A stretch of DNA of 64,000 nt from Nemertoderma westbladi (GCA_032718475.1 JAUCBJ010004353.1:42005-106004), one strand, 5' to 3'. Positions 8,505 to 39,924 are shown, counted from the stretch's first letter. A program made the numbers and translations. Notes: generated from the sequence alone by a model not told the origin.

Positions 8505-8510
8505 AACAGT

Positions 8511-11072
8511 TCATTCAAGTTGTCGAATATCCGTCTGAGATTTCTTCGGGAGGTTCCTTTCTATCTCAAGAAGTTCCTCTAAAGGATCGTCAGTGATCGT
8601 AGTCGTTACTTCGAAATCATCACCAAGGTGACCGATAGGCGCGCGCGTCTGCCGTGATTCATCCATAACCTCCACGATACGTTCTCCTTCATAGGGTAAC
8701 AATGTAAACATAGATGGTCTTTCGATAAGAGATCCCGCACAGCGAAGATACACGTCTCGAAATATACTAAATCCTGCTCGAGTAAAGGCATTACACTGAG
8801 CGTCGGAGTTGTAGAAGGGTTCAAGAAATCGTCTAAACACGTCGGTATGAATTCTCCCTTCCATGTAGAACGTATGATCTTCTCCGAGACAAAGTGGATG
8901 TCTTTTAAGAGTCCGAGACACAATGTCGGCGATTAAGCAAACATTCACTGACGACTCTATTGCTAAATAATATTGTAGGACCGCTCTTGGAGGTGACGTA
9001 ATAGCCCAATACACGCATCCTCTCCATTTGAGCTGTGATTCAAACTCACTCATATCTGGAGTATCACCTTCTCCATAAGTCTCAATATACTTGGCTCTCT
9101 TACTTTCCTTATAATCCCAATTGAATAACAGGTAGGAAATGTATCCAGTTCCGGTCTTCTGAGTATTATACTCACGAAAATATCCTTGTTCTATAGACCA
9201 CAAGATAAGAGGTCGAGTGTCGACGTACGGTGTCGGTAGTCGGTCATCGCTGTCCGTCATGCCAGCGAAGTCGCTAATTAAGTCTTCTCTTACTCCTGAT
9301 CCAATCTTTACAACAGTTTTATCTAAAATCATATTTCTTACCATCTTCGGTAGCATTCTAGCATCGATATTACAAGCTTGGTCCATCTTCTTTACTATGT
9401 TAGTGATGAGATGATGTCGCTTTGTATTTGCTGGAGGTATCGGCATTCGTTTGTCGCTCCTCTGTCTACTGAAAACGTGCAAGACTCCGTCCGCCGCTCT
9501 AATTTGTATAGTCTTAGAAGTCAAACTCTGTTGATGACTGCCGCCCTCGTTATCGTAAAACATGTAACCATTTTCCTGAAACGATCTAAACGTTCTATTC
9601 CATTCGTCCAACAATTCTTCCGAAGGTTGCCAAATCTTCTCTATGTCCTTATCATCTTCGAAACGAATAACCTTACCTCGCCAATCCGCGGCAATATCTG
9701 TATCCGACTCGAAGGTTCCAGTTCCAATCCATAAACGAATCGTTCTGGTTAAATATCCTTTCAAATTACTCGGAGCTATATCAGCACCAGCTCTATCCAG
9801 TTCCCTAAAGTCTTGAATATGAGGTGGAACGTTATACACGACCTTTTGAGTAATATGTCTACGTAAATCATATATCTTACTCATATCGCTAAAAACAACT
9901 GCAGGAAGGAACTCCAAGTTTGAAATGATTTCTGGATGATCCACGATGGGTATTTCGTACGTCGTATCCTGTCGGACTGGTATACTAATAGGAAAATTGA
10001 GTGTCGTACTCAATGGTTTCGTAGTCGAAGTACTATATGGTTGTATTTCTCTTGTCCTCTCCGGGGATGCAATCTGTAGTCTCTGAATAACATTTTGAGC
10101 AAAGTTTATGCTCTCGAAAACTTCCGGTGTCATCTCCTTAGCTGGAGTTTGATCGTGTGACGTCCAATGGTAAGGTAGGCTCGCGAGTCTTCCGCCCCAT
10201 TCTTCCATCTCACCTTTCTCGAAAGCCTTGTAGGCTCTGTATAGGCTAAGAGCTTCTTTCTTTTCGCGGGTTGACTGATTCGCCTCGTCCAGCGTAAGTT
10301 CAAATGCATCGGGTTCAACAACCTTAGGTGGGTAAACGACAGTTTCTCCCGCCTTTGGTCCAGTCATAGCAAACGAATGATATGGATTTGATAAAGGATA
10401 CCCTCCTTCCTGGTAGCGTAGTTGTTGATGGTTCGAACACCTCGCCAATATCGGTTCAGGATTTTCCTTATTCAAACGCATCGGAATCGCATTTCGTTGT
10501 TCGCGCATACAAGAACCGCATTGATAATAAAGTTTATAAACTGAAAATGCTTCCTTTGTTTCTCTATCGTCCCCTCGAGTTCGTCTGTAAAGATGCATTC
10601 TATCAAATTCATCTCGTACCGCGGGCATAGGTTCGTGCGCCTTTAGGTATTGCATGGTATGATACAAACGACTAATTTCAGTATCGGGGTCTTCGTTAAT
10701 GTCTCCCGTATCACACAAAGCGTCGTACGGGTAAAGTTCATTGAAGGTTTTGCGCAAACTTTCGATTCTTTCATTTAATGCGTTTTGCCTTCTCTTTAAT
10801 ACATTTGTGTCATATTTAGTTCTCGCGAGTTTCGCTGTACTCTCTGATAATTCCTTTATACCAAATATAGTGTAGTCTTTGGCTCCAAATCTCTCGAATG
10901 GCGCTGCTGCTTCCTCTTGGATATCATATCCCCATCTCGGCTCTCCATGTATCTCCTTCTCCATAATTAGAGGTGTAGTTACATAATCATTACTACTAGA
11001 GGGAATACAACAGAGTTTGTAGTTAGTTGTGAGGAGACGTGAGAGTTTTCGTCTGCCCTTTTGGCTCGACAA
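8511..11072 (-). CDS. Bel/Pao accessory ORF (env position): Zn-finger plus DEDDy/WRN-like 3'-5' exonuclease-like protein, C-terminally truncated; first ATG ~10963
   Basis: 853 open codons starting ~550 bp after the pol stop. YMFYDNEG..TIQIR..LHVF (ExoI), LPKMVRNMILDKTVVKIGSGVREDL (ExoII), YVDT, YLAIE (ExoIII-like). Colinear homolog at 29564-33814. Confidence 0.8.
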   Translation of the reverse strand: MSSQKGRRKLSRLLTTNYKLCCIPSSSNDYVTTPLIMEKEIHGEPRWGYDIQEEAAAPFERFGAKDYTIFGIKELSESTAKLARTKYDTNVLKRRQNALNERIESLRKTFNELYPYDALCDTGDINEDPDTEISRLYHTMQYLKAHEPMPAVRDEFDRMHLYRRTRGDDRETKEAFSVYKLYYQCGSCMREQRNAIPMRLNKENPEPILARCSNHQQLRYQEGGYPLSNPYHSFAMTGPKAGETVVYPPKVVEPDAFELTLDEANQSTREKKEALSLYRAYKAFEKGEMEEWGGRLASLPYHWTSHDQTPAKEMTPEVFESINFAQNVIQRLQIASPERTREIQPYSTSTTKPLSTTLNFPISIPVRQDTTYEIPIVDHPEIISNLEFLPAVVFSDMSKIYDLRRHITQKVVYNVPPHIQDFRELDRAGADIAPSNLKGYLTRTIRLWIGTGTFESDTDIAADWRGKVIRFEDDKDIEKIWQPSEELLDEWNRTFRSFQENGYMFYDNEGGSHQQSLTSKTIQIRAADGVLHVFSRQRSDKRMPIPPANTKRHHLITNIVKKMDQACNIDARMLPKMVRNMILDKTVVKIGSGVREDLISDFAGMTDSDDRLPTPYVDTRPLILWSIEQGYFREYNTQKTGTGYISYLLFNWDYKESKRAKYIETYGEGDTPDMSEFESQLKWRGCVYWAITSPPRAVLQYYLAIESSVNVCLIADIVSRTLKRHPLCLGEDHTFYMEGRIHTDVFRRFLEPFYNSDAQCNAFTRAGFSIFRDVYLRCAGSLIERPSMFTLLPYEGERIVEVMDESRQTRAPIGHLGDDFEVTTTITDDPLEELLEIERNLPKKSQTDIRQLE

Positions 11073-11626
11073 CGCTCTAACCTCCTACCCATAGCCTAAG
11101 ATCTAGGGTTTCTTTAATGACACGCTGCTTCTTATCTAAAATTTTTTGCCGAAATAAAAACGAATTTGGGATAAACTGGCTGTGAGTCTAAAATACTCAC
11201 TTTTTGATCCCAAACTATTATCAGAAAATAAGCAGTCAAGAATTAGTAATAAATATAGGGAAGTCTATTTATTGACGTAACTTATTGAAACAAGACCGTG
11301 TAAAATTTAATTAAAATTTTAAGAAAGGCTCGCAAGTCTTCCTCTCTTGTTTCTCTAATTTTAAGTTCCACCCGACTGTACCCTGAAATCTATTCACTGG
11401 AGAAAATTTTAAAAATTTTTCAAATCCAAATGGATTGTCTAAAATTTCGAAAATGTCTCAATATTGTGAGTTCCAAGTAGAATTCCATTTCTTATACCTA
11501 CAAATCCCGCTCCTATGTGACACATAAGGGTACTACCCTCAATGTTCACATATAAAGACAATGGAATTCTACCGCTGTCCTTACTACAGTGTACAGGTAC
11601 GTGGAAATCTATTTGTAAACTCCTAA

Positions 11627-14600
11627 TTATTTACTAACATTTGTTGGAGATTTGTAGTCTCCAGACTCGTTTCGAGTCTCTTCAAGAAGTACGAGACGTT
11701 GAGTCAGTCTGTCAACTGTATGACCGTCAATTGTCCGTACCGTCACAGTTCTTGTCACTCCATCCATAGATGGATGTGTGGCTAAAATTACACCTGTTAT
11801 CCAGAAGCGTCTTTTTAGATTCACTTCCGCTAACAGCACGTGATCTCCCAGCTTTAATGCGCGGGTGTTATTGTACCATGTTGTTCTGGCAGAAATAGAG
11901 GGCAAATAATGGTTTTGCCATATTTCCCAGAATTTGTTAGCTAGTAGTTGCGTGATTTTCCACGCTTTTCTACCGTAGCTATCGCCTTCCATTGGAAAAG
12001 AAATAGGCGTTAATGTAGTCGGTGCCTGCATAAGCAGGTGTGCTGGTGTTAAAGCAAACTGGGATTGTTTGTCATCGGGTACTAATACTATTGGTCTAGT
12101 ATTTAGTATTGCCTCGATTTCAACAAACAGTGTTGTCAGTTGGTCGTCTGTCAAAATGTGGTTTACTGGAATGACCTTTGCCATTGCCGTTTTGATAGAT
12201 CTAATCAATCTCTCCCAGACTCCGCCTCTCCATGGACTATCTGGAGGATTAAACTTCCAAACAATCTTGTAAGGACGTAGTTCGTTTGAGATTTGATCAT
12301 GATCTAATTTCTTAAAGGCTCTAGCAATTTCATTTCGAGCACCAACAAAGTTTGTCCCTTGGTCTGAGTACAAGCATTTCACTAGTCCGCGTCTAGCGAT
12401 AAATCGCCGCAATGCTAGTATAAACGCATTGGTGGAAAGATCCATCACACGTTCAATATGAACTGCCCTACTGGACATACATGTGAAAATCAGTCCCCAG
12501 CGTTTTACTAGTATACGTCCACGTTTCGTATGTATGGGACCAAAGCAATCAATTCCAGTCTCTGTAAAAGGTGGTCTGAATGCTTGAAGTCGTGCTTGTG
12601 AAAGTTCACTCATTTCTTGAGTACCTATTCTAGAGTGTACCTTTTTACAAATAATACGCGTACGTGTCACTGAACTTAACGCTTTACTGGGTCTAATTAA
12701 TACAAATCTTGTACGTAAGTAGGAAAGACAGTGGTGTCTTCCAGCGTGTTTCAGATGTAAATGTGCTTCCAGTATCATTGCACGTTGTAATTCGTGATGC
12801 TGCGGTATTATTATTGGGTATCTAAAGTTTGTGTTAAAGTCAATGTTTTGAAGCCGAGATTTATGACAAATTAAGCCATTATAAATTATCGGACTCCAAC
12901 TCAATATTGGTGACGACTTGATTGGTTGACCTTGATTTATAGATGTGAATTCGCGCGCGAAATATCGCAGTTGGTAATGGCGAATTAATTTAATTTCACA
13001 CCTGTCAATCTCAGTCAATGTAAGTCGACGTGTAAAGTCGCGTTTGCCTTTAACGTATTGTACAAAACGTACAATCCACGCTAATTTTCGGCAAGCGTTT
13101 GTCCAAGAATCTGTGAAGTTTACAATACGGTCGACGTAAGTATTTGTGACGTCATCAGGTAAGTCAATGGAGAATTTGGAAGGTTTTGATTTACTAGAAG
13201 GGCCCACGGGTCCGCCGGTAGGTATTCCCTTGTTGACTGTTGATCCGTCCGGGTCTACAAGTAATTTGTCCTTCTTTGTTTTCTTACCCTGGTTGTCAGT
13301 ACTTTGTAAGTCGATCGTTAATGGTGGTTTGAACTCTATGGGGTCACTGGGTTTCGGTAAACTTATTTTTCTGCCGATATTAATCCCGGGTCTCACCATA
13401 GGTTGCAAGTTTGGTATGTCTCTTGAGCGCAAAGTAACACCTGTATTTACATTAGCGTAGGTACTACCCACATCTGTAATACATGAGGTTTCACTGTGCT
13501 TATGGTTGCTCAAGTGTGTCAAATTTGGTAGTTTGTCAATACAAGGCCGCTCCAATAGAGAAACTGCGGCTTTACTATTTGTCAATATGTTACTAGTGTC
13601 TGGTAGAACATTTTGTGATATGTCTGGCAAAATGTCTGGTTGACCGTCTAGTAACGCGTCTGGTTGACCATCTGGCGATATGTCTGGTGTAGAAAGGCTC
13701 GCAAGTCTTCCGTTCTTGACCTTTGAAGTTATATCTTTCCATTTCGCCTTCAGTTTTTTCTTAAGTTTAACCGCCGTCCTTTTCTTTGCTTTCCCTTTCT
13801 TTGGTTTTTTAATTTCCGCGTCTTTAGGGATAGTGTTAGACTTGTTGTCGTATAGTGGCGGCCAATGTTGTACTGATCTTTGCAAGAATTGTGGTCCGTG
13901 TTGCCAAAATTCTTTGTTTTCCGGTTTACAGAATTCCTCGGGCATCATTCCTCGCGACGCAATATCAGCTGGATTTTGTGGTCCGGGACAATGTCGCCAA
14001 TCTTCCTTTATTGAACAGTCTAGAATTTCTGCGCGACGGTTAGCTACGAATGTCTTGAATTCAAGTGTGTCGTTGTTTATGTAAAATAAAACCAACGTCG
14101 CGTCAGTCCAATAAAATATCTGTAAACTTGACTGTAGTTCCGTCTGTATAAGGTTCACGATTGTGGTTGACAGGGTTGCGGCTTGTAGCTCAGCGCGTGG
14201 TGTCGTCATATACTTAGTAGGCATGGTCTTAGTCTTAGAAGTAATGAGCGAAACATCAAACTCTTCTGAGTCTACTTGTCTGCGCAAGTACGCTGCCACA
14301 CCAAAGCCGTTGTCACTGGCGTCGGAAAAACAATGTAATTCCGAGTTGTCAGGAAACGTCGTTTGTAATGGAAAGTACACTCTGGGTATGGAATAATCCT
14401 CTAGCGAAGATAATTGTGCCTCCCAGGTTTTCCATAAGTCCACTTGTTCTGATGAGATCGGCTCATCCCATGTCAGTCCATCCTTCCAAATACTGCGCAT
14501 ATAAATTCTGGCTTGCAGTATTATTGGGCTGATGAAACCTAATGGATCGAACAATCGACTCAATTTTGACAAGCAGGATCTCTTTGTCAGAGTGTTTTCT

Positions 14601-17600
14601 TGAGTGTCCAGTCTCACCTTCACTCGAAAGTTGTCCGTGTTTGGGTCCCCAAAGAGCCCTAACACCTTTGTCGTCGGTAGTGGTTCGAACTCTAGGTCAA
14701 TGTCACCACCTCCACGCTCAGTCGTTCCGAATGAGTCTACCAATTCGGCACTGTTTGAGGCGAATTTGGTGAGGTTAAAACCTCCGCCCGCTAAGCAGTC
14801 CCGTAATTGATGTGCTACTGTTATACCACGTTCTACTGTGTCACAACTCTGTAAGCCGTCGTCTACGTAAAAGTCACGTTCTACGATCTTGATTATCTCT
14901 GGGTCATATATATGTTTCTGATCCCTAGCGGCTTGCTTTAGGGCGTACATCGTACAGTTTGGGCTGTCCCTGGCACCGAAAACGCGAACTTGCATTTGGT
15001 AAGTCGCCGGTGGTAGACTTAAGTCTCCTTCCGGGTACCAGAGGAACCTCAAACTGTCTCTGTCTCGCTCTAACGCTCGCACTTGGTGAAATATAGCTTC
15101 GACGTCACAAGTAAAGGCTACTTGACGCTGACGGAAGCGCATAATCACCCCCATAAGATAATTATTCATGTTTGGTCCATCCATTAACTCACTATTGAGG
15201 GACATTCCCTCAAACAGAGCCGTGCAGTGATTGACTACACGTACTTTGTCTGGTTTGTCGGGGTGTCTCACGTAGTGATGTGGCAAGTAGTATGTCTGGT
15301 CAGTCACAATCTCTGGGTTAGTCATTCTGATAGCGTATCCCTTCGTTAAATACGTCTCCATCTGAGTATTATACTGCAGATGGGCTTTCTTGTCCTTTAA
15401 TAGACGTTGTCGTATTGAGTGTAAACGTCTTAAGGCTAGCGGATAGTTATTTATGAGTTTAGGACGTTGGTTACGCCATAGCATCCCTACCTCATTATGT
15501 CCGTCTTTCGTCTGGCGGATAGTATCTTCCATGATCTTCAAAGATTGTTTCTCTTGTTCCGACATACATGGTTCGTAGCTACCAGGTTCGGCTGTATCTT
15601 GTTCTAACCACCTGATAGTCTTCTCCGTTAATTCTTTGTCCAATGCAGCTTGTTCCACTTGATGATTTCTTAACGCGTCATCATCGATATCGACGGGCAT
15701 TGTTGAGGTTATTAGTGTAGATAGACTCGCAAGCCTTCCGGCGTTATCATCTGTCGTCGATGGAATCTCTGGCTGACTCGTCTTCTTCCCAAGTTCTAAA
15801 CTCACCTGGTGGATTAGCTGCTCCTTGTGACTTATCATACTCGCTACACACGTCGTGTCATGTTTTGTCGAATGTAGTGTAGTATAGTCTACGTCGTGTG
15901 AAAAGGAATGAGTCGAAGTTGTAGTTAATAAACTACATGTACTTTGTATATCGTCTTCCTCGTCACTTATATCCAGTGTGCGCACAGGCGCTTGAGTATA
16001 CCACCCTATCGGCGTTCTACAGGCGTATGCGTTTCCCGCTATGACTGCCGATGGTCTGGTTTCCCACACTTGATGTAGGTTGAATTGATCTGTCCCGATC
16101 AGCATTGCTACCGACCTATAGTTGACAGGACATTCAGGTACACCAAGGTGTCTGAAGTACTTACGGTCCTCCAAGGATTGTTCTGGGACAGGACCTAGTA
16201 GGTTACTAAAGTCCTTTGTGGCCGCAAAGGTTAAATCTTTAAAGGGTAACAAAGACCTCTCCTTTTCGCTATGTTGCGATTTCGGAAGAAGAGTGTCTAA
16301 GTTCAACTTAACTCGTGTCACTGGTATTGCACGTTGTCCATGCATACTACTTACGGTGTAACTGACGTTCTTACCTTGTCGGAGATCCGTCACAACATCA
16401 GCTACTTTCTCATCCACGTAGCTATGAGATGAGGCTGAGTCCAGGATAGCGTAGATCCGTATCCGTTTGCTCCCCTTTGTGCCCGTAATCTTGACAGGAA
16501 TTATACTAAACCCCTTTAGTTGATCAGGCATCAGAAGTGCAATCGATGGTTGTTCGTCTCCAGTATCAAAGTAAACGTCTTCGTCTTCCGACTCTTCATC
16601 CGACGATCCTGATTGTTCCGAGAAGCAATCTCTAATGTGCGTCACGAAAGTCGGTGTTGTTTTCGACTCTCGACCCTTATATGCTGTGTTGCATCTTGCT
16701 GCCGCTTCCGGGTGTTCCCTGGTGAAGCGTCTGGTCGGCGTATGACTGTCTGTGTGGAGCAAACCGTCATGGTTGCGTCCACAGGAAGGACAGGTGTCTG
16801 TATTTGGGCAGTCTTTACGGACATGTCCATGTAGCGTACACCGCCAACAAGAGTCCAATGGCCGTATTTGTAGTCGTCGTTCCTCCGAATTCAATTCGCG
16901 GAATAGTCGACAACCTCTCAGTTTATGGATAGTATGTCGTTTACCTAGCCGTTCGCAATATTGGCAACCGCTAAAGTCTGTGCTCAGTTGCTGTCGGATC
17001 TGTTTGGTTCCAATTGGTGCGGATACCTTATTACTATCCGAAAATTGTCGGGTGTCGGTCGATGTTGCGTAGGTAACCGTCTTTGTGGATGTTGTTTGGG
17101 GTTTTTGTCGGTTCGAGGATGGTAATGTTATTCCTTCCGCCACGATATGTTGGTCCGTGTAGTTCGAACGCGTCTCGACTACTGCCTCTCTGGATATCAG
17201 TAAGTAGACGTCTTCCAACTTCAAGAATCCGCCTCTCTCTTCTTGCTGATATTCTATCTTTCGCCACTCCCGACGAAGTCGATGGTGTAATCTTCCTATT
17301 ATTTTCAATAGGACTGTCGGAGTGTTCGCGTAGTCAAGTTGTCCAATCGAGCGTAGTGTAGTAATGGCGTTCTTAATCTCGTCAGCTAATTTCAGTAAGT
17401 CAACGGGTTTTGTTATAGCCCCCCCCTTACAGAGTTCTTCTATCACTGACTTAGCCATGCTTACGGTGCCTCCGTAAATCGAAGTTAAGCGATCGTATGC
17501 TAGTTCGAAGGCGTCTGGTACACCGACAAAGGTCTCCGCTAGACGTTTCGGTTCTCCCGTCAGCGTTTGTAGCAGGTAGTTGAATTTCTCCCTCGATGTA

Positions 17601-18697
17601 AAAGCGCACGCTGCTATTTGTGTTTCGATGTAGTCCACAAAAGTGTGCCAATGTTTCGAGTTACCTGAAAACTTAGGTGGTTGTTGCACCGGTAAACCTT
17701 GTCTCGCTGCGAATTTCGCTATCTCCTCGGCCACGTTCAAAGTTTCGCGTCCTTGGTTGGCAATCGAGTTGATGTTCTCTCGTCTTGGCGCTTTTCCTTG
17801 ATACGAGGTGTTTCTCGAGGATTGTTTTCTTTGTTGCTTCGGGTGTCTAGAGTGTTCGAACTCGTTACCTCGCGAACTATCAGTTTGAGTTTCCTCTAAA
17901 CGTTCCTCTATCTGGGCCAACTTGTTGACAACTGGGCGCATTATTTCGGCGAGTTGTTGCGTACTAATTGCGTCCGTTGGTTGTAACGACTTCTGTGTTG
18001 GCGTATTTTGTGGAGGATTATCGATAAAGGAATTGTCTGAACGCTCACGTTTACATTCGTCGGCCGCTCCTGTTCTAAATACCTCGCGTTCCGGGTAATC
18101 CGACTCGCTTGAAGTACTACTGTCACCTGGATACGGTGGTCGACGTGTTCGTGTCCGTTGCGTCGTACGAATTCTAACATTCCGTTTTGGAACATCGTCC
18201 ACTGTTCTCCGTTGTTCGGTAGGCTCACAAGTCTTCCTCGAAGTCGTAGATTGCGATGTAAACTGGTTAAACGGTCGCGTATCCACTGGGCTCCGTTGTT
18301 CGGTAGGCTCACAAGTCTTCCTCGAAGTCGTAGATTGCGATGTAAACTGGTTAAACGGTCGCGTTTCCACTGGTCTCCATTGTTCGGTAGGCTCACAAGT
18401 CTTCCTCGAAGTCGTAGATTGCGATGTAAACTGATTAATCGGTGGTCGGACGACAACGTTTGAATCTAAAGGCCTTGTAGGCCTAAACGTCATTGGGTAC
18501 GTGTAGTGCGTAACGGGTTTTGGTGTCGAAGGTGGACTCACCTGTTTAGTCGTCAGTAGTGCAGGTCTGGTCAACAAACTACTACGATTTGTAATCGGTG
18601 GGTTACTTACCTTGACTTTCAGAATAGGCGATGACGTTGCTCTTGAGTTGAAATTCTGCACAAAAAATAATTCGCACCTACTAGGATTCGAACTCAA
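11627..18697 (-). CDS. Bel/Pao Gag-Pol polyprotein, family B, uninterrupted (2356 codons)
   Basis: PKFSGNSKHW, CWRCTLHGHVRKDC, AILDSAS, DFYVDD, LHCFSDAS, TGIDCFGP, SDQGTNF, WRGGVWERL. First Cys of the integrase HHCC appears replaced (TRIIC). True start codon uncertain. Confidence 0.95.
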   Translation of the reverse strand: MSSNPSRCELFFVQNFNSRATSSPILKVKVSNPPITNRSSLLTRPALLTTKQVSPPSTPKPVTHYTYPMTFRPTRPLDSNVVVRPPINQFTSQSTTSRKTCEPTEQWRPVETRPFNQFTSQSTTSRKTCEPTEQRSPVDTRPFNQFTSQSTTSRKTCEPTEQRRTVDDVPKRNVRIRTTQRTRTRRPPYPGDSSTSSESDYPEREVFRTGAADECKRERSDNSFIDNPPQNTPTQKSLQPTDAISTQQLAEIMRPVVNKLAQIEERLEETQTDSSRGNEFEHSRHPKQQRKQSSRNTSYQGKAPRRENINSIANQGRETLNVAEEIAKFAARQGLPVQQPPKFSGNSKHWHTFVDYIETQIAACAFTSREKFNYLLQTLTGEPKRLAETFVGVPDAFELAYDRLTSIYGGTVSMAKSVIEELCKGGAITKPVDLLKLADEIKNAITTLRSIGQLDYANTPTVLLKIIGRLHHRLRREWRKIEYQQEERGGFLKLEDVYLLISREAVVETRSNYTDQHIVAEGITLPSSNRQKPQTTSTKTVTYATSTDTRQFSDSNKVSAPIGTKQIRQQLSTDFSGCQYCERLGKRHTIHKLRGCRLFRELNSEERRLQIRPLDSCWRCTLHGHVRKDCPNTDTCPSCGRNHDGLLHTDSHTPTRRFTREHPEAAARCNTAYKGRESKTTPTFVTHIRDCFSEQSGSSDEESEDEDVYFDTGDEQPSIALLMPDQLKGFSIIPVKITGTKGSKRIRIYAILDSASSHSYVDEKVADVVTDLRQGKNVSYTVSSMHGQRAIPVTRVKLNLDTLLPKSQHSEKERSLLPFKDLTFAATKDFSNLLGPVPEQSLEDRKYFRHLGVPECPVNYRSVAMLIGTDQFNLHQVWETRPSAVIAGNAYACRTPIGWYTQAPVRTLDISDEEDDIQSTCSLLTTTSTHSFSHDVDYTTLHSTKHDTTCVASMISHKEQLIHQVSLELGKKTSQPEIPSTTDDNAGRLASLSTLITSTMPVDIDDDALRNHQVEQAALDKELTEKTIRWLEQDTAEPGSYEPCMSEQEKQSLKIMEDTIRQTKDGHNEVGMLWRNQRPKLINNYPLALRRLHSIRQRLLKDKKAHLQYNTQMETYLTKGYAIRMTNPEIVTDQTYYLPHHYVRHPDKPDKVRVVNHCTALFEGMSLNSELMDGPNMNNYLMGVIMRFRQRQVAFTCDVEAIFHQVRALERDRDSLRFLWYPEGDLSLPPATYQMQVRVFGARDSPNCTMYALKQAARDQKHIYDPEIIKIVERDFYVDDGLQSCDTVERGITVAHQLRDCLAGGGFNLTKFASNSAELVDSFGTTERGGGDIDLEFEPLPTTKVLGLFGDPNTDNFRVKVRLDTQENTLTKRSCLSKLSRLFDPLGFISPIILQARIYMRSIWKDGLTWDEPISSEQVDLWKTWEAQLSSLEDYSIPRVYFPLQTTFPDNSELHCFSDASDNGFGVAAYLRRQVDSEEFDVSLITSKTKTMPTKYMTTPRAELQAATLSTTIVNLIQTELQSSLQIFYWTDATLVLFYINNDTLEFKTFVANRRAEILDCSIKEDWRHCPGPQNPADIASRGMMPEEFCKPENKEFWQHGPQFLQRSVQHWPPLYDNKSNTIPKDAEIKKPKKGKAKKRTAVKLKKKLKAKWKDITSKVKNGRLASLSTPDISPDGQPDALLDGQPDILPDISQNVLPDTSNILTNSKAAVSLLERPCIDKLPNLTHLSNHKHSETSCITDVGSTYANVNTGVTLRSRDIPNLQPMVRPGINIGRKISLPKPSDPIEFKPPLTIDLQSTDNQGKKTKKDKLLVDPDGSTVNKGIPTGGPVGPSSKSKPSKFSIDLPDDVTNTYVDRIVNFTDSWTNACRKLAWIVRFVQYVKGKRDFTRRLTLTEIDRCEIKLIRHYQLRYFAREFTSINQGQPIKSSPILSWSPIIYNGLICHKSRLQNIDFNTNFRYPIIIPQHHELQRAMILEAHLHLKHAGRHHCLSYLRTRFVLIRPSKALSSVTRTRIICKKVHSRIGTQEMSELSQARLQAFRPPFTETGIDCFGPIHTKRGRILVKRWGLIFTCMSSRAVHIERVMDLSTNAFILALRRFIARRGLVKCLYSDQGTNFVGARNEIARAFKKLDHDQISNELRPYKIVWKFNPPDSPWRGGVWERLIRSIKTAMAKVIPVNHILTDDQLTTLFVEIEAILNTRPIVLVPDDKQSQFALTPAHLLMQAPTTLTPISFPMEGDSYGRKAWKITQLLANKFWEIWQNHYLPSISARTTWYNNTRALKLGDHVLLAEVNLKRRFWITGVILATHPSMDGVTRTVTVRTIDGHTVDRLTQRLVLLEETRNESGDYKSPTNVSK
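18200..18436 (-). repeat. Coding tandem repeat, 84 bp x ~3, in Gag N-terminus
   Basis: NQFTSQSTTSRKTCEPTEQ..V.TRPF repeated with a 28-aa period. Confidence 0.9.
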
Positions 18698-18747
18698 TAC
18701 ACACTACATATAATTTCCAACGCTCTACCGACTGAGCTACTGAACCA
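18662..18747 (-). other. tRNA-like Pol III module (A box, B box, T run); not a complete tRNA
   Basis: Minus strand TAGCTCAGTCGGTAGAGCG ... GAGTTCGAATCC ... TTTTTT; no convincing acceptor or anticodon stem. Confidence 0.55.
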
Positions 18748-19255
18748 CTTGGCTAATCATCGTACAAATAGATATAGCAAATACAAATGAGGACTTAATG
18801 TAATCTTTTAACAAAGTTAATTCGAATAAAATAAAATTTTGAAAATCCACGGCGTTTAGAGAGTATAATTCTATATAGAAACTTGACGGTTGACGCGTGT
18901 ACCAGAGGTACTAGGCCTATACCTCCGACGGGATTGGGCTATTTTTCTGCCTCTTACAGCCGTTATTATGGGCGATATTTTCTGATTTTTTATTAAGACT
19001 GCTCATTAAACCAGAGATTAGTAAATTTATAAATCCGCCCCGCTGCACCAATCGTTAACGATAAATTCTAATAGGATATTTGGCTGTTGGTTTTTTAGCA
19101 ATCTCTCGTATAGTTTTTTTATGACGTTTTAGCCTCGCCATTTTTTTGCTCAGGAATTTTTACGTTACCATTTAATACATTCAGAATAATATTAATTAGA
19201 AAACTTATAAGTTCATCGGTTCTACCGACGCCTAAGAAGGTTTTTCTACGGTTAA

Positions 19256-29563: not shown

Positions 29564-32500
29564 TTAGTCTTTCTTACGCGGACGGCGTTTACGCAGTTTT
29601 TTGAGGCTAGCAAGAGTCCTTTTCTCTTTGGGGCGAGCCACTTTACTAGGAGGGCTATAACTCCTGGGTGAAGGGTGCAATACAATTGCATCAGAATGTT
29701 TAGGATTACGATCGGTGTATCCGCCAGTCGAGGTACCTGGTTGATCGATATCAACTTCAGTGGAGCGAGGTCTAACGGCCTTTAGGGCGCGTCTTAGGAC
29801 AGCAGCTCCTACTGGTCCCTGACGAGTAGTCTGGACAATAGCGGTAGGTGGACCGTGAGTGGTGAGAAACTTCTTCGGTTTAATGGTTCTTTCCAGCTCG
29901 CGTTCTCGGGCTCGATATTCGTAGGGCCGTCGAGATACTTCCTGTAACTCAGGGTGCGAGTTAATAAATAAATCGCCATACTCAGGGTCTTGACGGATGA
30001 AATTGATCAAATGGTATGAAATAATATCGTTAGGATTGACGTTCCTGAGATATTTTCGAACAAATTTGGTGGAAATACACTCACCAACACGCTTCATTAG
30101 TTCGTAACTTGGTGTGCGTGTTTTTTGTTCAACAGACGCGAATAGATAAGGATGGAACGTGTAAACTCCTTCGTAGGCGCGTCCAGGGTAATAGCGATGG
30201 CGTGACTCACAATGTAAATCCGCGTTCGCTTCCCAAGCTCGGATGTAGCGCAGGGTAATCATCTCATCTACGCTTTCCAGATCGCGGTTATAAGGGCAAT
30301 TAAAACTGGCATGTCCTTTAAGTTGACAGTGGTGGCATTGAGTCATAAATTGGGGGCAGACTGCAAAAATGTGCGAGTTATTGAGTCTGCAATACGCACA
30401 ATAGATCTCCATCATCGGTTGTTCATGGAAATAGGAGCAGGGTACGTCTGAGTCCATAGGGGTGAAATGATCTCTCGATGCGCATAATCGGCAACGCTTT
30501 TGAGAAACATAGTTGGCGTGCCGATAATCGTATGCGGTGAGACATTGTGGACCTTGATACCATTCCAAGACGTAGTCGTTATAGCTGCTCCGGGGCGCTG
30601 TAGGTTGAATCTCCTCAGATTCTAAGCATATTGGTTCGTCTTCCAATTGCATAGTTGAGATAGGTGCGGCTGTCTCTGCAAGCGAACCCACTGTCTGAAC
30701 TTCCACGACAGAATAACCCATGGGTATTCGAGGTCTTTGTATAACAGATGAATGTAAGTTCTGTATACAAACGTCCTTGAAAAGGGCGAATCCCGGGCCG
30801 TCTAACTTCTCCGCAGCTGAGTCTCTTAGGCTGAGTTTGGTCAGAGCGCGGTCCTTGAACTGACTATCAACGTTACGGAACGGAGTCAGAAAGCGCCTCA
30901 AACATTCGAAGGGGATGAATTTATTGTGTTCATCTAGCTTGGCGAGTTTGGTTCCAAGTATTAAGGGATGGGCGCGTATGGTACGACTGCACACATCGGC
31001 TAGCCAACCGGCAAGTGCGGCGTTTTCAAAGATCGTGTATATAGCTAAGGAGGGACGAAGTGGAACACTCATAAAGCTATACACGGCGCCAGGTGCGGTC
31101 AATGGTCCGGCAAAGTATAATCGAGAATAATGATCTCCATATACTTGTTGGTAGTTGATAGGATTTCCAACCTTGAAATTCCATCCGTATTCTTGAAAGG
31201 CAAGATGTCCGATGGAGGTTCGTTGTACTTTAGTAATGCCGCTGGGTGTATTTGCATACATAGTGCGGAAGAAACCTCTGCCTTCTGCCCAGGGAGCAAT
31301 CAGCTGAGTATCGACGAAAGGGTATGGAATATTCTCCATGTTCCGAAAGTCGTTTTGGAGATCTCCATAAACAGCTGAGCCGATTTTAAGGATTCTTTCG
31401 TTAAACAACATCTCGAGCACGGGCTGGGGTAACATCGATCCATCGATACCCATGGCCGGTTTGCGCTCGGTGTCGGTGACGTAATGCTGCGCGAGTTTGA
31501 ATTGTCCATGTCGGAGTTTCTTTTGTATCTCGGTAAGGGTCTCAAAAGAATAATCAATCACATCGGAACACGCTCGAGTAAATATGTGGGTAGAACCAGC
31601 TAGTCCTCGTATGTGTATCATTCACGTAGTTCCCAGTTCTCCAACCGGAACGCTACCTTCGTTATCGTAAGTGACAACTCCATACATCTCGATAACGTTA
31701 AGAGTCTCATTCCACTCTTTAGGGGCGTTTTCTAGAGTCATTCCCACTGGATGCCACAAGGTAGCGCATTCGCTAGCATTAGGTAGATCTCTATACTTTA
31801 AATATTGTGTAGTGTATGTCTCTACATCTCCATATCATTGTATTCTTTCCTCCTCGAAAAACACATCGAGTTTCCAGTGCACTAATCGAGTTTTGATGAA
31901 TCCATCAAGATTATACGGAGGTATTTTCTCTTTCTCTATTCTGGAAACATTATAGGGTTTTCGGAATGAGTTTACTTTAACTAACTGATCCAGATGTTTC
32001 TGCAGTTGTTCGAGTTCGACAAGATCGAGAGGATTTATTAGTGGTAGAAACCTCAGACTATGTGTAGGATCTTCCGGTTTTACCATGTAATATTGCGTTA
32101 GATTGACGTAATAAGGGTGATCTTTGATCCCATAAAACGAGTTTGGTAAAGGTCTAGCGCGTATGTTAACTTCGTGTACCATACGACGGACAAGATCCGC
32201 TCTATTGTCCGGAGGTTCAACGAGTATACCATCGACACGAGCGGCCTCGATTGGCGGACGTTGCAACATGGGAGCGTCAGCGATAAGATCTCGAGATCTT
32301 AGGTTGATATCAACCGGTTGAGGCTGTGCCATGGCGAAGAGTTTGTCTCCAAATGGGGAACCATCGAAGGATGGATGATGGTTTTAGAATAGAGATCCGT
32401 CATAAGAATTTGAGCTTCTGGCTGGGCTAAAGCTGCTTCTTCTCTCTCATCCATTTCTATGTGTTTCTCCTCGAGCTGATTTTCCTCCGCTTGTTGTTGT

Positions 32501-33814
32501 AAACGCTCGTCTAGGAACTCTTGTAAAGAGTAGGTTCGTCCACGTTCGATGTCTTCCTCGAGATTCTGGATTTCTCTATTGAACTGGGGTAAAGCTAATT
32601 CTTTCACCGCTTGGACTTGTTGCTGCAATTTGCGTTTCTCTAAACAATCGTAAGTTCCTTTTCCGATTTTCTGCCGAATAGCGTCTAACGCGTTTCGTAC
32701 AACGCTCTCTTCGACTTCAGTAACGGGTTGTATCAGGGTTAAGCCTGGACGGTTGTACGGGTTAAACGGCGATATTAGATGACCGCGTCCTAATCCGGCT
32801 AGGTAGGGTTGGCGAATATCTAGTGAGCCCACTACCGGAGTGCCACCGATTAATTGTTCGGGTAACACAAGATCTTTAAATAGTGAGTACAGTTCAGGGG
32901 GATCCGTTATACTATTAGGATCAAGCGTTTGAGGTCTCACTGAGGAATGAGGAGGTCTGACCGAGTATTCCGGAACTCTGATCATTGGTTTATTCAAGGA
33001 TCGTTTGAGTCGAGCGAGCGTAGGTGATACATCGAACAGGTTTCGCTCGAAACTCCCATAAGTATATCGTGTAAAACTGTGTTTAGCGCAACGTCTCCGC
33101 GGATGTTTATGTCTTTCCGTTTGCTGATTGGGCCTAGGGCATTCGTCACAGTAATACCAAAGACGCACGTCCTGCAGGGGAAACGCGGGGATCGTTCTCC
33201 AGTTTTACAATATTCCTCCATCTGTTCGAAGCTATCTGGGACGACAGGTAGCGGTCGATCGGCGGTAAGATACATCATAGTGAAATAGAGTCGTTTGAGT
33301 TCTATCATAGGGTCATGATGTATACCTTGAGGATATCGAGTTTCTAGATTTTGTTGACTGGCAATATTGAGATATGTTTCTCTCAGGAATTCCAAAAATC
33401 GTTGAAGTCGCTGCGTTTATCCGGCTCTTCAATGTCTTCCCTTTCGAGTCTGTTTCGAATAGAATTCTCGTGTTCTATTCTTGGTTTAGCGTTCCGACTC
33501 CGCTGGGTATGATATTTAAATAAAACCATTTCCCTTTCGGTGTCTACATCGTCCGTATCGTGTAAATGGATAGGATGGCCAGTAGTTAAGAAGTCCATAT
33601 ACGTACCATTACGATGCGTATAGCGAGCGGTGAATTTTCTATAGTCCAATTCACGCGTAAGTTGCTCCTGGGACATTGGTGGTTCGATATAACGACCATT
33701 GTCCTCCGTAGTAGTTGGACCAGCGTCGCCGCGTATCAAGCTATCAACAAACGCTTGTAAAGGTAGAGTATATCGCTCCCTGATACCAAGATCATCTTCT
33801 ATCAACTCAGTCAT
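29564..33814 (-). pseudogene. Bel/Pao family A accessory ORF (~1400 codons when reconstructed): Zn-finger, DEDDy-like exonuclease, CCHC knuckles, basic tail
   Basis: Consecutive ORF pieces 33383-33814, 32994-33395, 32299-33168, 31835-32332 and 29564-31621, joined by frameshifts and stops. Colinear similarity to 8511-11072. Confidence 0.8.
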
Positions 33815-35435
33815 ATCTGCTATATGAGTTTATTAATATTATAATGAGTTTATATTTAGGCTAGCGGGCGTCGCTGCCTACCCCTCTCTGCCCCCGGACA
33901 GTGCAAGATCCTCAGCGCCGATGTACCGTCGTCGCTGTGTTTTCGCCAACGTAGTAGCTACACAACTACAACGATAACCGGCACAAGTCACTCCACTGTC
34001 CGTCCCAAAGGCTTAGATTTACTTCAGGTTCTTGCTGCAGAGTTAGGGCTACTTTCACAATTGCGACTCGCTACTGTAAACACACTTTAGTAGTAACATT
34101 CACCTATAAATGCACAAATTCCACACAACTGTCACAAATTGTACACATTCGGGCCATTTGTCCATTAGTCAAGTGCCTTCCAGAATGCCACATTATTATT
34201 ATGTATCCTTGGATACTAGCAGTGTGCTATTTATTCCCTATGCTATTCAATGGGGTAAGCTTTCTGTTGTTCTTTTAACTCACTTCTAATTCTAGCGTGG
34301 TTGTTGCTATGGTGACATTATGGAAATGAGGGTAATTCTCATGCATACAGATCTGGGATGCTATTTAATAGTAATTCTTTAATTGTCAATATCCCCTTTA
34401 TACATGATTTTATAAATTTTATCGGCTATTGACTATATATTGGAGATTCTCGCACACTAATACACTTAATAGGGTGAATCTCCGCTCCCATGATCTATTA
34501 ATTAATGGAATTTTGGGAATGTTATAAATTGTATAAAAATGACAATTTATCAAATTCATTAAAATATGAATTTAAATTTATTCCCGTAAATTTTATTATT
34601 TAATATTAAATAGACACAATTTTATTCCAGAACATGTCTGGGGACTGGGATCCTTGATTCTAGGAAATTGGTCTTTTTAAGAGTATCGGTAAGTGCTACG
34701 ATATCTTAATAGACTAGAATTTTAAAGGATCTAAAATTTGACAGATTTTGTAAATATTAATAATTAATATTTAGGATGGGCACCAGTTTATTCCAGAACT
34801 TGTCTGGGGACGTTAACCACTGATTCTAGAATTTTGTCTTTCAAGTATATCGGTGGGTGCCGCGATATCTTAATCGACTAGAATTACAGATGGTCAAAGG
34901 GTTTAACATATTTATTTTGCGTTATACGCTACTGTTAAAGGGACATCACGCTACTATATGTATTATTTAATATACGGTATGAGAGCAATATCGCACGAAG
35001 CAATGTCAGTGAGAAGAGGCAAGTCGTTTCCAAGGTCTACCCAGAGCTTGGTTTAGCCGAGACACGAGGATCTGAATTTTGCATTCCTAATACTCTACTT
35101 TACCAATAATACTTGTATATAGTAGGAGCTTTATTGTACTTTAATAAGTACGGATATTTCATCTTACTGTAGTCACGTATTTATAAGGTAATACGAACAG
35201 TAAGGAAAGAGGAAAAAAATTATTTCTCGCCGTCGCACTAAATATATAATATATAAGTAATTAAGTAATAAACGCGAATATATATGGCACTAATCTACTA
35301 AATAATCGCTAAAATAACATTCTACTAAATAAAATTAAAGAAAACGATTATAATAAAATTACATAATAATACATACATAAATATAAAATAATGAAACAAA
35401 TATAAAATATAGTCACACACCCACTCCAGACGCTA

Positions 35436-38400
35436 TTACGTTGGGGAGTCCCTAGATGTTTGTTGGATTAGGGAGGTGGTCGTGGGAAGAGTATCTTGCC
35501 TTCCATAGTTTCCGGACAGTTCTCGGTCTCTTTCCAGTAAACATAAACGACCAACTGGGAGATTGAGTTGTTGTGTTTCGAATACAATTCCAGGTTTCCT
35601 CTTCGTCCTGGAATAGTGACGATAGAAACATCGCTTCAAATACACGACGGCCTTACAAAGCCGATTCCAGGATCTATAGTGGTCCATCGAGGTGAGAGTG
35701 AGAGGTGAGAGTCCCGGCGAGACGTCTGGTGTTCCAGATCTCCAGTCTCTCTCTCTGATCTCCACAACAGATAGGTTCGCGGTGGGGGAGTTTAGATCCA
35801 CAGCGTCGTCCCTGGCAATGTGTAGTACAGACAGATCTATCACGGGTTTAAATAACCTTGATTTACTCGTCCGGGTTTTAGGTTTGACTTTCTCCGCTCC
35901 CTTGGCTTGTCTAATCTCAGCCGTGGTAAGATGGGGAGGCCATTCATCTTCTTTACTTAGGAAGTCGGGTCCACCTAACCAGTCTGGAGTGTCTGTCAGT
36001 TCTTGAGGAGTTGCTCCTCTGGAAGCGATGTCGGTTAGATTAATCGTCTCGGGGCAATGTCTCCATTGATCTACATTAGAGTTAATATCGTCATTATCTG
36101 AGGAGTATGGTGTTCCCTCAGTTGGGTCATCCACCTCACTGCTCTCCGCTTCCCATCCACTTACTTGGTAAACCCGTTCCTTGGGTAACCTTTCCATGAG
36201 AGTTCTACGGGAAGGGCCAGTAAAGTACCAACCTACTCTAGTTCTTCCCGCATAGGCTTGTAGTGGTTGCGGTTGAGCAGGCCGTTTCTCCAATGTCTCA
36301 AGCGCCTCATGCGCATTTTGGCCGATGAGTATTTGCACTCCAGGGTAGTCTGTGTTGAATCTAGGTATCTTAAGCTGCTGGGTGAAATCGTCCTCATCCC
36401 AGTTATAAGGTTCTACTTGGCTGGTAGCGAAGTTCTTTATCGCCACCATTTTTACTGACCTTATACTGTGTTCTCCTAGTTCATCCTGGGGGGTGGACAA
36501 CGCACCTACATAATAATCTGCTATTACTGTAGATTTCCAAACCTGCATAATTCCTGACATGTTTAACTCAGTTCGGAACTTGGGTTGTCCAGCAAAGATG
36601 TCTTCGGCTAGTTCTTTGTCTATGAATGTTCCTGTGCTACCGGAGTCAAGGAGGGCATTCACTATATAACTCCTTTCAGGTCCGTGGACCCTCAACTGCA
36701 CTACGGGAAATTCTCGGATTCCTACATTGGAAGTTGATGCTTTCCAAGATGGTTGTTGGTCAGAAGTAGTTAGGGGGAGCTCGCTGTCGGTGTCCTTTTC
36801 ATACGTAAGTGCTCGATACACTGCGGTATTTATCAGGTAACAGGATTCGTCTTCGTCGGAGAATTCGTCCGTATAGAATCCTTCCATCTCAGAACTTTGG
36901 TCAGTGTCGTTCACATCACTGAATTGGACATGTAGTTCGGACTCACTTACCTGACTCGGGCTGTTTCATTCGAATTCAGTGTGCAACGAGATATGATGTT
37001 TTGCGCCGCACTTTGCACACCTTGCGTCGGAGTAACAGGTTCGCCGTTGGTGTCCTTGTCTGAGGCAATTATAACACAACCGCTTATCCCACATGACTTC
37101 CCGTCTATCCTTTAATGATTTCTTTAGGAATTCATCACACACATTCAAACGGTGGGGCCCGTCACACAGCGCACATTTCGGTTTGATGTTACTTACCTTA
37201 TTTTGAGTAACGTTGTGCACACTCGTTCTTTCTTCGGGCTTTCTTACCTGAATTCTCTTAGGAGACGTAGGAGGGGTTTTTCTTACCTGTTCTCTCCTGT
37301 CATTGGTTCGAGACTTGAATTTACTTACGTCTTTAGGCGTTTTGTTGACATAATAAGATCTTTCAGTGTCTTTCCCGCTGTCTTCTTCTTGAGAAGCCTG
37401 GCTTTCGCCATCGTCGGTATAACACACTGGTGTTACCTTTCTCCTAGAAACGGGTTTCTCACTTACCTTGTTTTCCGATGTCTTCTCTCTGGACTGCTTT
37501 AGGAACTGTAATTTCACTTCTCCATCTAAGAATGACATGAGATCAGCCATGGTAGGGTCTCGTCGTTGCTGTTCCATCATATATAACACTTTCTTATCCC
37601 AGCGTGTACCTACTCCACCCTTAGGTAAAGTAGAGGCTACGGCTCCAATAACCATAGAACTCTGATATTCATGAGACTTACCTAGCCAATCTAATTGTCT
37701 ACAGATCTCCTGAATCTCATCGGAAAACTCTATAATCCCGCTGCTAATGAACTTTCGGGGGGCTACCAATTTTGCATACAAATACCTAGCTATGTTATTC
37801 CTATTACCATACCTGATGTTTAGTGTATCCCAAACTTGTCTTAATCCATCTGGATGTCCAATAAACTTGGGCATCCATTAACTTGGGAGATCCTTCCAAG
37901 CACTCGATGAGGAATCTAAGTTTCTCTCCGTTAGATAGCACAGAGTTCTGTATGTTATCTTTGTAATATTCATTAAAAGGTAACCATTTCATCTCATCTC
38001 CATTGAACTTGACGATCTCTCCCACCTTTACCGCTTGATGGGCAATCGTGTTATTTAATATTGAGTTATCGGTATATAAATTTCTCGGATTATGATCAGG
38101 TCTATATGGAATATCATTGTCAACAGGTTTATAATTACCCTTAATAGGGTTTACTATAGGAGTTTCCACTTCACTAGCAGTATAGATGCGTGTAGGCTCC
38201 ACACCTTGCGCATGAAATACTTCAGACCTATCAGGTTGACACATTGTTACAGGGGGTGGTGGTATACCCTTTTGTGTATTTACTAATTTATCGCGTTCTA
38301 ACGCGATACTTTGCTGCACTTCTTGCAACTCTAACCTACTTTCCCTTACTGTTCCCTTAAACTGATGAACAGTCTCCTGCATCTGCCCGAGCAGGAGATT

Positions 38401-39924
38401 CATCCCTCGCCGCCCCTCATCCACCCACTCGACCGCCGAAGCGGGAGCCGCCAACATAGTAGCGGGCAGATGAGAGACGACGGGCGATAAATTCTTGATA
38501 TCTCGCTCGGCGTCCAGGACGGGTTCGGACTCGGGAACAGTCCTACTGGGCACAGGTAGTTTAGTACTGTGCAAAGGGAATTTAGAGGTAGGTTCTGGGA
38601 GTACAGGTGTCTCTATCACCGAAGGGGTGGCTTCGAGAACAGGCCTAATTATTTCAGGCTCATCTACTATAGTAGGGAGTCTTTCTATTTTAATTATTTG
38701 GTCTGTGGGTTCTGTACTACCTAAGTCTGTGCTAGCTAGTTGCCTTCTAACAGCTGGGGGCAAATCAGGCAATTTCTGACGGTGGGACATTCTTCTACGC
38801 CTACTTAGACGAGATCTATTTCCTCCGCCTTCAGGATCGGTGGTATCGCCTTCATCAGAGGATGTAAATCCCTGTCGTTTGGGAGTAGATCGACTCATCA
38901 TCTGCATTTGACTAGCTGTTAACTGTTTATTGAAGTTGTCTTGCCTCTCTTGAAGATTTTCCAACTCTAGTTGGGTTGTCTCTTCAGATGCCCTCCGTTC
39001 TGCTTCTGCCACTGCCGCTTTTCTTTCTGCTTCGGCCGCTTTTCTTTCCGCTTCTGCCGCTGCCACTGCCACTTTTCTTTCCACTTCGGCCGCTTTTCTT
39101 TCCGCTTCTGCCGCTGCCACTGCCGCTTTTCTTTCCAAGTCGGCCGCTTTTCTTTCTGCTTCGGCCGATTTTCTTTCCGCTTCTGCCGCTGCCACTGCTG
39201 CTTTTCTTTCCACGTCGGCCGCTTTTCTTTCCGCTTCTGCCGCTGCCATTGCCGCTTTCTTTTCCACTTCTGCTGCCTTTCTTTCCGCTTCTGCCTCTGC
39301 CGCTGCCGCTGCTGCTGTCTTTCTGTCTTCTATACGTTTTTTCTTTACTTGTTCTTCTTGAACCTTAGCGATGCGGATGCTTTCATCAAATTTAGCTTGG
39401 TTCGCAGCTGACATTTCCGCATCTATTGCGTCCAGCACAAACTTAGCTCCTTCACTATTAGGGCGAAGTCCATCCAGCCTTCTCCTCAACTCTTCGTCAC
39501 CTAGAAAGCGTTGATAGTCTGGCAGATAGATGTCAATAGCATCCCTCTTATGCGGTTTCTCTGCTGTCGCTTCGCTTTCCACTTGAGAAAAGGTAGCGTC
39601 TGTTGATTCTCCATGGGTTGAGCGCTCAGCCAGCTGAGATTTCCACTGGGCCATTCCTTGAACCTTGAGACTCACCCGCTGGAACCAAGTCTTTACAGCA
39701 ACTTGCAACGACGTGTCTTGTCTCCTTTTCGAAGCTTCCTCAAAGGCCGATAGGATTAGTCTGATTCTTAGAATTCTTTCTCTAACTTGATAAAGCAGCT
39801 CTTCCTGCTCTTGAGGTCCTTGGGGTTGTCGAAACATGTCTGGTTTGGTTATGCCCTGGTTTGGGATACGCGATATATGACTGCTGTAGTTCATTGAATG
39901 ACTGTTGATATCTAAATATTTCAT
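35436..39924 (-). pseudogene. Gag-protease fused to pol remnants
   Basis: ORFs 37804-39924, 36966-37874 and 35436-36914, separated by a frameshift (~37875) and a stop (36966). Deletion junctions at ~36080 and ~35600. Confidence 0.9.
38990..39320 (-). repeat. Coding repeat (EAERKAA)n, coiled-coil-like, in Gag N-terminus
   Basis: Iterated GAAGCGGAAAGAAAAGCGGC units. Confidence 0.9.

Follow-up and report, generated by a model that had tools for sequence, protein, structure and literature searches.

A stretch of 64,000 nucleotides from Nemertoderma westbladi (GCA_032718475.1, JAUCBJ010004353.1:42005-106004), hereafter the window, was analysed for the genes carried by its retroelements. The window holds nested transposable elements, among them three families of Bel/Pao long terminal repeat (LTR) retrotransposons, here called A, B and C, in which translations and Pfam positions give the Pol order protease (PR), reverse transcriptase (RT), RNase H and integrase. 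In a Pfam scan, PF03564, PF05380 and PF18701 exceeded their cut-offs in family B (E-values of 1.7e-10, 2.8e-42 and 6e-19, respectively) and in the first of two copies of family A. Between families A and B, identity is 43% in RT/RNase H, 42–43% in integrase and 22% in gag-protease; family C is closer to B, with about 48% identity in pol. A large accessory open reading frame (ORF) lies co-directionally after the integrase end of family A and another after that of family B, and these two, named ORF-A and ORF-B, are the subject of this work. Features of the window are listed in Table 1.

Table 1. Features of the 64,000-nucleotide window, with positions counted from its first nucleotide
Feature	Position	Strand	Remarks
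Spacer of family A copy 1	1..1212	-	93-98% identical to 34528-35450; runs off the window before the expected ORF-A start
Family A copy 1	1213..7244	-	5'-truncated gag, PR, RT, RNase H, integrase, with stops; PF03564, PF05380, PF17921, PF18701
Foreign Gypsy-type 3' fragment	7260..8510	-	Integrase piece, purine tract, LTR-like tail; abuts and truncates ORF-B
ORF-B, accessory ORF, 3'-truncated	8511..10964	-	817 aa (10964->8514) from Met at 10964
Predicted DEDDy-like core of ORF-B	8955..9557	-	Exo I D471/E473, Exo II D561, Exo III Y666/E670
Putative zinc finger CxxC...CxxH of ORF-B	10428..10520	-	Counterpart 33150-33079 in ORF-A
Non-coding spacer of family B	10965..11626	-	662 bp; multicopy depth; contigs bridge the integrase stop
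Family B gag-pol	11627..18703	-	Single open frame, 2358 codons, first Met 18490
Candidate primer-binding site of family B	19040..19050	-	TGG-starting motif directly 3' of the candidate LTR
Candidate 5' LTR of family B	19054..21118	-	About 495 bp of own sequence, split by a later insertion
TTAA-bounded element, foreign to family B	19253..20822		163-bp internal repeats; inserted in the candidate B LTR
Long interspersed nuclear element, nearly intact	22447-26553	+	ORF1 and endonuclease-RT ORF2 of 1041 codons
Foldback element	27380..29488		2.1 kb, arms 75-79% complementary; where the 3' LTR would be expected
Possible polypurine tract, then TGT	29487..29500	-	About 65-75 bp past the ORF-A stop; read from sequence
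ORF-A, accessory ORF, broken	29564..33814	-	1417 codons, 3 frameshifts, 2 stops
Three CCHC-type zinc-knuckle motifs of ORF-A	30296..30493	-	Pattern match; beyond the ORF-B truncation point
Predicted DEDDy-like core of ORF-A	31025..31669	-	DxE, D, YxxxE
Spacer of family A	33815..35435	-	1.6 kb, AT-rich, 164-bp tandem repeats; depth very high, continuous with gag and ORF start
Family A copy 2	35436..39924	-	gag, PR, internally deleted pol retaining the integrase C-terminal tail
Family C Bel/Pao	45145-52505	+	Ends within integrase, before the point where an accessory ORF could show

The two accessory ORFs are homologous. By tblastn within the window, residues 349-812 of ORF-B matched 32059-30575 over 524 columns (27.5% identity, 149 bits, E 2.4e-39), and a second block paired residues 89-129 with 33323-33201 (E 4e-7), as compared with a best score of 34.7 bits for 50 shuffled ORF-B queries. 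A preliminary description of this DNA had aligned the two proteins block by block, and all seven motif pairs that it named were recovered at the expected places. Its account of ORF-A as a disrupted ORF of about 1400 codons was likewise borne out, the frameshifts lying near 33400, 33200 and 32350 and the in-frame stops near 31835 and 31622. ORF-B, reported there as 853 codons, is indeed an ORF, of 857 codons from stop to stop, but it is not complete: it runs directly into the Gypsy-type integrase fragment at 8510. Since contigs of other copies leave the window sequence at 8514 in three of the four public runs compared (X1, X2 and X4), the natural protein is expected to be longer than 817 residues. 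The level of identity between the ORFs (27%) fits shared descent. The spacers that separate the ORFs from their integrases gave no match to each other.

Both proteins carry a CxxC...CxxH finger near the N-terminus, a pattern that is weak on its own, its score being reached by 5 of 300 shuffles. The knuckles of ORF-A matched zf-CCHC_3 with an E-value of 0.0084, below the Pfam cut-off. Neither ORF-B nor the ORF-A pieces contained a transmembrane or otherwise hydrophobic segment, the highest 19-residue hydropathy being 1.38 for ORF-B, whose copy lacks the natural C-terminus, and 1.19 for any piece of ORF-A, whose C-terminus is complete, basic and rich in Lys and Arg. The signal peptide and transmembrane anchor of env-like glycoproteins were found in none of them. 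The ORFs thus occupy the env position, co-directional after integrase, yet are not env-like, as had been proposed.

Copies of both ORF regions were compared in four (X1, X2, X4 and X5) of nine listed public runs, all of which consist of contigs, so that summed depth was used only to tell multicopy from single-copy sequence. In X1, depth was 24,000–48,000 over ORF-B and 9,000–84,000 over family B gag-pol, and 120 over the flank at 7517-8033, a stretch of low contig depth within the Gypsy-type fragment; on the other side, the multicopy depth of family B dropped past about 21.5 kb. For family A, depth was 107,000–416,000 over ORF-A, 177,000–1,360,000 over 33538-40075 (spacer and gag) and 108–146 beyond 40,076, and in X1 and X2 it was unbroken from gag via the spacer into ORF-A. 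Contigs bridged the passage from the integrase stop of family B into its spacer, and that from the family A spacer into the start of ORF-A. The position first assigned to ORF-A, behind the pol end of family A and a 1.6-kb spacer, was confirmed, but the adjoining pol proved to be internally deleted: copy 2 lacks RT as well as the greater part of RNase H and integrase. The two A copies are 84–95% identical in their common blocks and have a common spacer as far as the window extends (1-493 versus 34528-35020, 97.8% over 494 bp). Through this common spacer a full family A pol would be linked to ORF-A, though only indirectly.

Among the pieces listed for these runs, 19 within the ORFs showed 692 substitutions and 2 gaps over 7231 bases, and four within the spacers 70 substitutions and 21 gaps over 1187 bases. 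Since insertions and deletions are scarce in diverged ORF copies, the comparison indicates that the reading frame is under selection, as judged from these sequences, in subfamilies with a divergence of up to about 14%. Three joints drop the nuclease-like core and retain both ends of the ORF, two in family B (8680-10807 and 8792-10825) and one in family A (30644-33447).

Several observations weigh against the ORFs being part of the elements. Among the contigs listed, none covers integrase to ORF in one piece. No pair of direct repeats that could represent LTRs surrounds either ORF in the window, in which family B is cut at its 3' end and copy 2 of family A at its 5' end. The tally of gaps comes from the longest pieces listed among tens of thousands, a small and length-biased sample from which pieces straddling a boundary were excluded. 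In X4, the ends of ORF-A were deeper (8,600 and 18,000) than gag (240–1,700), which counts against residence in the element because a separate element with deleted copies would give the same picture. On balance, the ORF is very probably carried within the element and derives from a Bel/Pao ancestor of both families, and it is likely to be an inherited third gene. It is a real accessory gene of a Bel/Pao lineage, and probably one undescribed so far. The idea of an accessory module was therefore upheld as regards multicopy occurrence with gag-pol and constraint on the frame, and not as regards enclosure by Bel LTRs.

The identity of the core shared by the two proteins was examined by several kinds of search. 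In the ESM Atlas, all 30 named matches of ORF-B residues 440-695 were to PF01612, the top one at 0.92 and the third named 'Werner syndrome-like exonuclease'; residues 380-790 pointed to PF01612 at 0.89, a result from the same source. Profiles were built from bacterial DEDDy domains of RNase D (11 domains), WRN-like, mixed, NrnC and PolI type. With the RNase D profile, ORF-A ranked first of 233 frames of the window (E 1.6e-5); the mixed profile gave E-values of 0.009 for ORF-A and 1.4 for ORF-B, and the WRN-like profile 0.68 for ORF-A. In profile-profile comparisons with hhalign, scores exceeded those of 100 out of 100 column shuffles for each of the WRN-like, RNase D and mixed profiles.

The alignment to the mixed profile placed the sequence DNE on Exo I, the next two strands on their counterparts and the KIG...D block on Exo II. 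Both proteins read DNE at Exo I, in agreement with DxE, and the Exo II aspartate stands in the context K-hydrophobic-x6-D, within the block that scored highest in both hmmsearch and hhalign. Exo III was placed by hand on the WRN segment, where both proteins show P-x7-Y-x3-acid followed by hydrophobic residues. The three motifs, common to both proteins and in order, did not arise in any of 20,000 column shuffles; 104 of 120 WRN-like references contain them. All four acidic positions are acidic, and the tyrosine is retained, in both ORFs despite their low overall identity.

Against this assignment stand a number of results. The Atlas matches share 159–161 of 256 features, below the 170 typical of members of one family, and shuffled proteins score 0.9 in the Atlas 4–10 times per 100. 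ORF-B reached an E-value of only 0.71 with the RNase D profile and 1.6 with the WRN-like one, and the NrnC and PolI profiles gave no match. The hhalign probabilities were low (10–42% overall; 11, 36 and 42% for the WRN-like, RNase D and mixed profiles), with most of the signal coming from about 46 columns around Exo II, and Exo III was placed by hhalign on an earlier YGEGD of ORF-B that is not common to ORF-A. The motif test was defined only after the alignment had been viewed. At Exo III both proteins read YxxxE and not YxxxD, as opposed to YAAxD in 120 of 120 references. No Pfam or PHROG family was matched at cut-off, no match to PF01612 was obtained at E <=10, and a sequence search of the PDB was without match. 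AlphaFold2 models were uninformative as to the fold, with a predicted local distance difference test (pLDDT) score of 31.9 for the full ORF-B and 33.9 for the 257-residue core with a three-row alignment. The order of helices and strands in the core model agreed with DnaQ beginning at the second strand, the Exo I strand being absent, and was given no weight. Fold searches with this model gave no Foldseek match at E <=0.001, and rows resembling double-stranded RNA-binding domains (Z <=5.5) were rejected as meaningless given the low confidence of the model. Compared with EXD2, the spacing within the core is widened by two insertions, each of about 30 residues.

Combined, these results make it quite probable, as far as sequence comparison goes, that the shared core has a DnaQ/DEDDy fold of the WRN/RNase D type with the predicted active-site residues D, E, D and Y-x3-E. 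Because Exo III reads YxxxE, the predicted core is not a canonical DEDDy domain. The exonuclease likeness proposed in the preliminary description was thus strengthened by the Atlas matches, the RNase D profile and the ordered motifs, and was weakened by the YxxxE reading; both structural models were of too low confidence to bear on it.

Relatives were sought widely. No homologue of ORF-B residues 370-790 was found among 3659 candidates, and none of the C-terminal piece of ORF-A among 4082 longer candidates; none appeared at E <=0.001 among 1.84 billion protein representatives, in 167 metagenome stretches or at 79 loci from a scan with the Exo I pattern. Three plasmid matches to the ORF were dismissed as chance. 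The gene is not thereby shown to be confined to this species, because ORFs of animal transposons may be under-represented in such collections.

DEDDy domains have been described as cargo of other mobile elements. Third ORFs with a DEDDy domain occur in the rotifer elements Juno and Vesta and in Athena/Terminon elements, with DEDD changed to DEED and a putative activity, according to the available text of PMC5408684; the case is repeated in the available parts of PMC6431247 and PMC6338049. The preliminary description was thus correct in placing such ORFs in bdelloid Gypsy-type and Penelope-like elements, and the words 'Bel' and 'Pao' do not occur in the main text of PMC5408684. As that text presents them, the Juno and Vesta ORF3 resemble the ORFs studied here in being a third ORF after pol that is not an env, with an RNase D/WRN-like DEDDy domain, an Asp-to-Glu swap and no transmembrane segment. 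They differ in reading DEED, as opposed to D-E-D-E here, and our ORF is distinguished from them by its length of about 1400 codons, its N-terminal Cys/His finger and its three CCHC knuckles. By analogy, and compared by description, the ORF may work like the rotifer DEDDy ORF3; it is not assigned to the rotifer pool.

In the Bel/Pao group itself (Belpaoviridae), some elements carry an env-like third gene, as stated in the available text of PMC8742986 and PMC3118150. In these as in the families described here, gag-pol has Bel/Pao-specific Pfam domains and is followed, beyond integrase, by a third gene, which in our case is nuclease-like and without a membrane segment. The size range given for the family in the same sources is 4.2–10 kb; a complete element of family B would exceed it, because the parts present already add up to about 11 kb, the inserted element and the lost 3' end not counted. 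The word 'exonuclease' does not occur in the text of PMC3118150, supplements aside. No Bel/Pao exonuclease, and no DEDDy ORF in a Bel/Pao element, was found in the literature searched, to which Repbase, GyDB, subscription journals and the supplements of PMC3118150 did not belong; within that range the corresponding statement in the earlier account stands.

Among cellular enzymes of PF01612 (WRN-exo, EXD2, mut-7, RNase D and Rrp6), of which EXD2 has the catalytic residues D108, E110, D171, Y242 and D246 (PMC6648332, available text), the order and context of Exo I, the two following strands, Exo II and an Exo III-like helix are the same as in our ORFs. Unlike these enzymes, the ORFs have the two insertions, YxxxE for YxxxD and no match that reaches the Pfam cut-off. 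Dada DNA transposons of Laccaria and Ectocarpus also combine a DEDDy exonuclease with zinc fingers in a mobile element; in contrast to the stand-alone ORF of an LTR retrotransposon, their DEDDy domain is inserted in the DDE transposase (PMC3706591, available text).

On this evidence we favour, with a probability of about 0.6, the reading that the homologous multicopy ORF is an inherited gene for a divergent DEDDy 3'-5' exonuclease with zinc fingers, which would act in trans on RNA against silencing. The protein would be translated from a subgenomic or spliced RNA of its own and not as part of Gag-Pol, a separate transcript being probable because the ORF stands alone behind an AT-rich spacer. 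The CCHC knuckles would bind RNA; an RNA substrate is suggested by their position adjoining an RNase D-like domain, and an RNase D query also retrieves PDB chains 7c42 and 7c45, named CCHC-type domain-containing protein. The exonuclease core would then trim or destroy the 3' ends of silencing or surveillance RNAs, and copies without the nuclease core would use protein supplied by other copies. Since core-deleted copies exist, the core is not needed in cis. This proposed chain of own transcript, RNA binding by the knuckles and trimming of silencing or surveillance RNAs is the likeliest single function given the fold, although we put it somewhat below an even chance. Doubtful, in turn, is the most specific version, in which an active DEDE exoribonuclease of about 1400 residues, aimed by its knuckles at small silencing RNAs or their precursors, would be a Bel/Pao silencing suppressor supplied in trans to nuclease-deleted copies.

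Other explanations were weighed against this one, the first two given here being its chief rivals. The ORF could encode a genuine exonuclease of the element that serves replication, by trimming the 3' ends of element RNA, primer or complementary DNA or by proofreading RT. Structured RNA and single-stranded DNA ends are substrates of DEDDy enzymes, a role of this kind was proposed for the rotifer ORFs (PMC5408684, available text), the closest Atlas names are WRN-like and the CCHC knuckles could direct the protein to particles. Nevertheless, the ORF is separate, behind a spacer of 0.66–1.6 kb and unfused to Pol, gag and pol suffice for the replication of most Bel/Pao elements (PMC8742986), and the deletion derivatives show it to be dispensable in cis, which is still compatible with action in trans; we regard a replicative role as unlikely. 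Within it, RT proofreading is the weakest of the three functions put forward at the outset, since the ORF and Pol are separate and both families include copies that have lost the core.

Alternatively, the DEDD fold could be present but catalytically weak or dead, as in Maelstrom or EXD1, the protein serving as an RNA-binding scaffold or decoy. The glutamate in the fourth acidic position of both proteins and the two insertions relative to EXD2 agree with this, and inactive DEDD derivatives are known to act in the biogenesis of Piwi-interacting RNAs (PMC5408684, available text). Retention of the four acidic positions and the tyrosine in both families, at the low identity reported above, speaks against it, and the rotifer ORFs, which likewise exchange one Asp for Glu, are read in the same text as possibly active. 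A weak or dead enzyme is rather improbable.

It is improbable that the ORF is a separate mobile unit lying beside or inserted into Bel/Pao elements. Such a unit would account for the lack of visible enclosing LTRs and for the deep ORF-A ends in X4, a pattern that internally deleted copies of such an element would produce; moreover, the AT-rich spacer of family A starts with a purine-rich run and then TGT soon after the integrase stop, and could hide a 3' LTR. However, two targeted insertions, independent of each other, would have to be assumed to explain why position and strand agree in two families whose spacers are unrelated, the spacer is common to both A copies, and depth in X1 and X2 is continuous from gag through spacer to ORF. 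The spacer of family B, only 662 bp long, contains no purine run of at least 7 followed by TG, and among transposase and RT families the ORF pieces have no match. Finally, a highly diverged env or other structural gene with a chance likeness to exonucleases, for which the env position, the env-like genes of some Bel/Pao elements (PMC8742986) and the absence of any profile above a curated cut-off could be adduced, is very improbable in view of the absence of a hydrophobic segment from ORF-B and the ORF-A pieces, the complete basic C-terminus included, of cysteines arranged in zinc-finger patterns and of several sequence-based tests that favour DEDDy.

The ends of the elements were inspected. 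The candidate 5' LTR of family B starts with TG and has a degenerate inverted end just before the TGG motif; it is termed a candidate because no second copy was found within the window. In all four runs a joint at 19253-20822 reveals other copies without the TTAA-bounded insertion. Self-priming of family B was considered and rejected because the candidate primer-binding site and the candidate LTR share no match longer than 5 nt. A degenerate transfer RNA (tRNA)-like sequence with A-box and B-box-like motifs lies at 18675-18745 (minus strand), shortly before gag in the 5' leader of family B; ARAGORN called no tRNA gene, there or elsewhere, and the sequence may be the head of a short interspersed nuclear element. 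In family A the candidate polypurine tract is ambiguous, since the foldback element begins at the same place, one of its arms starting precisely where the purine tract and TGT follow ORF-A, with no target-site duplication evident. As the foldback element follows the purine run and TGT, the 3' end of family A is unreadable; the foldback element could have replaced the 3' LTR or could be an unusual terminal repeat.

The 164-bp tandem repeats occur in both spacers of family A, at 34528-34920 and 1-390, and repeats of similar period are also present at 19775-20426, in the TTAA-bounded insertion, and at 41330-41592. The spacer of copy 1 contains an insertion of about 296 bp (494-789) with an 8-bp target-site duplication; the first 56–69 bp of the insertion recur at 28388-28443 and 45954-46022. 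Tandem coding repeats rich in Ala, Glu, Arg and Lys, probably forming coiled coils, were seen at 38960-39325, in the N-terminal gag region of family A, where their length varies among A copies, and at 45627-45854, upstream of the gag domain of family C. The Gypsy-type fragment has an open frame at 7644-8510, with a match to rve_3 at an E-value of 0.079 only, and purine tracts at 7633 and 7595. Translations also revealed two further RT-like fragments, at 60816-62366 and 63400-63870 (plus strand), that belong to non-LTR elements.

If the assignment of the core is right, the DEDDy cargo known from Gypsy-type and Penelope-like elements of rotifers extends to a third class of retroelements, Bel/Pao, in which a nuclease-like third gene has been kept in two deeply split families, the extra genes of this group being otherwise described as env-like. 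The exonuclease-like core of ORF-B is unbroken and directly assayable, and the high copy number would, given an assembly, lend itself to tests of selection and of small RNAs. Should the protein be a silencing suppressor, it would be a retrotransposon counterpart of the viral exonucleases that suppress immunity, and the first such enzymatic cargo in Bel/Pao.

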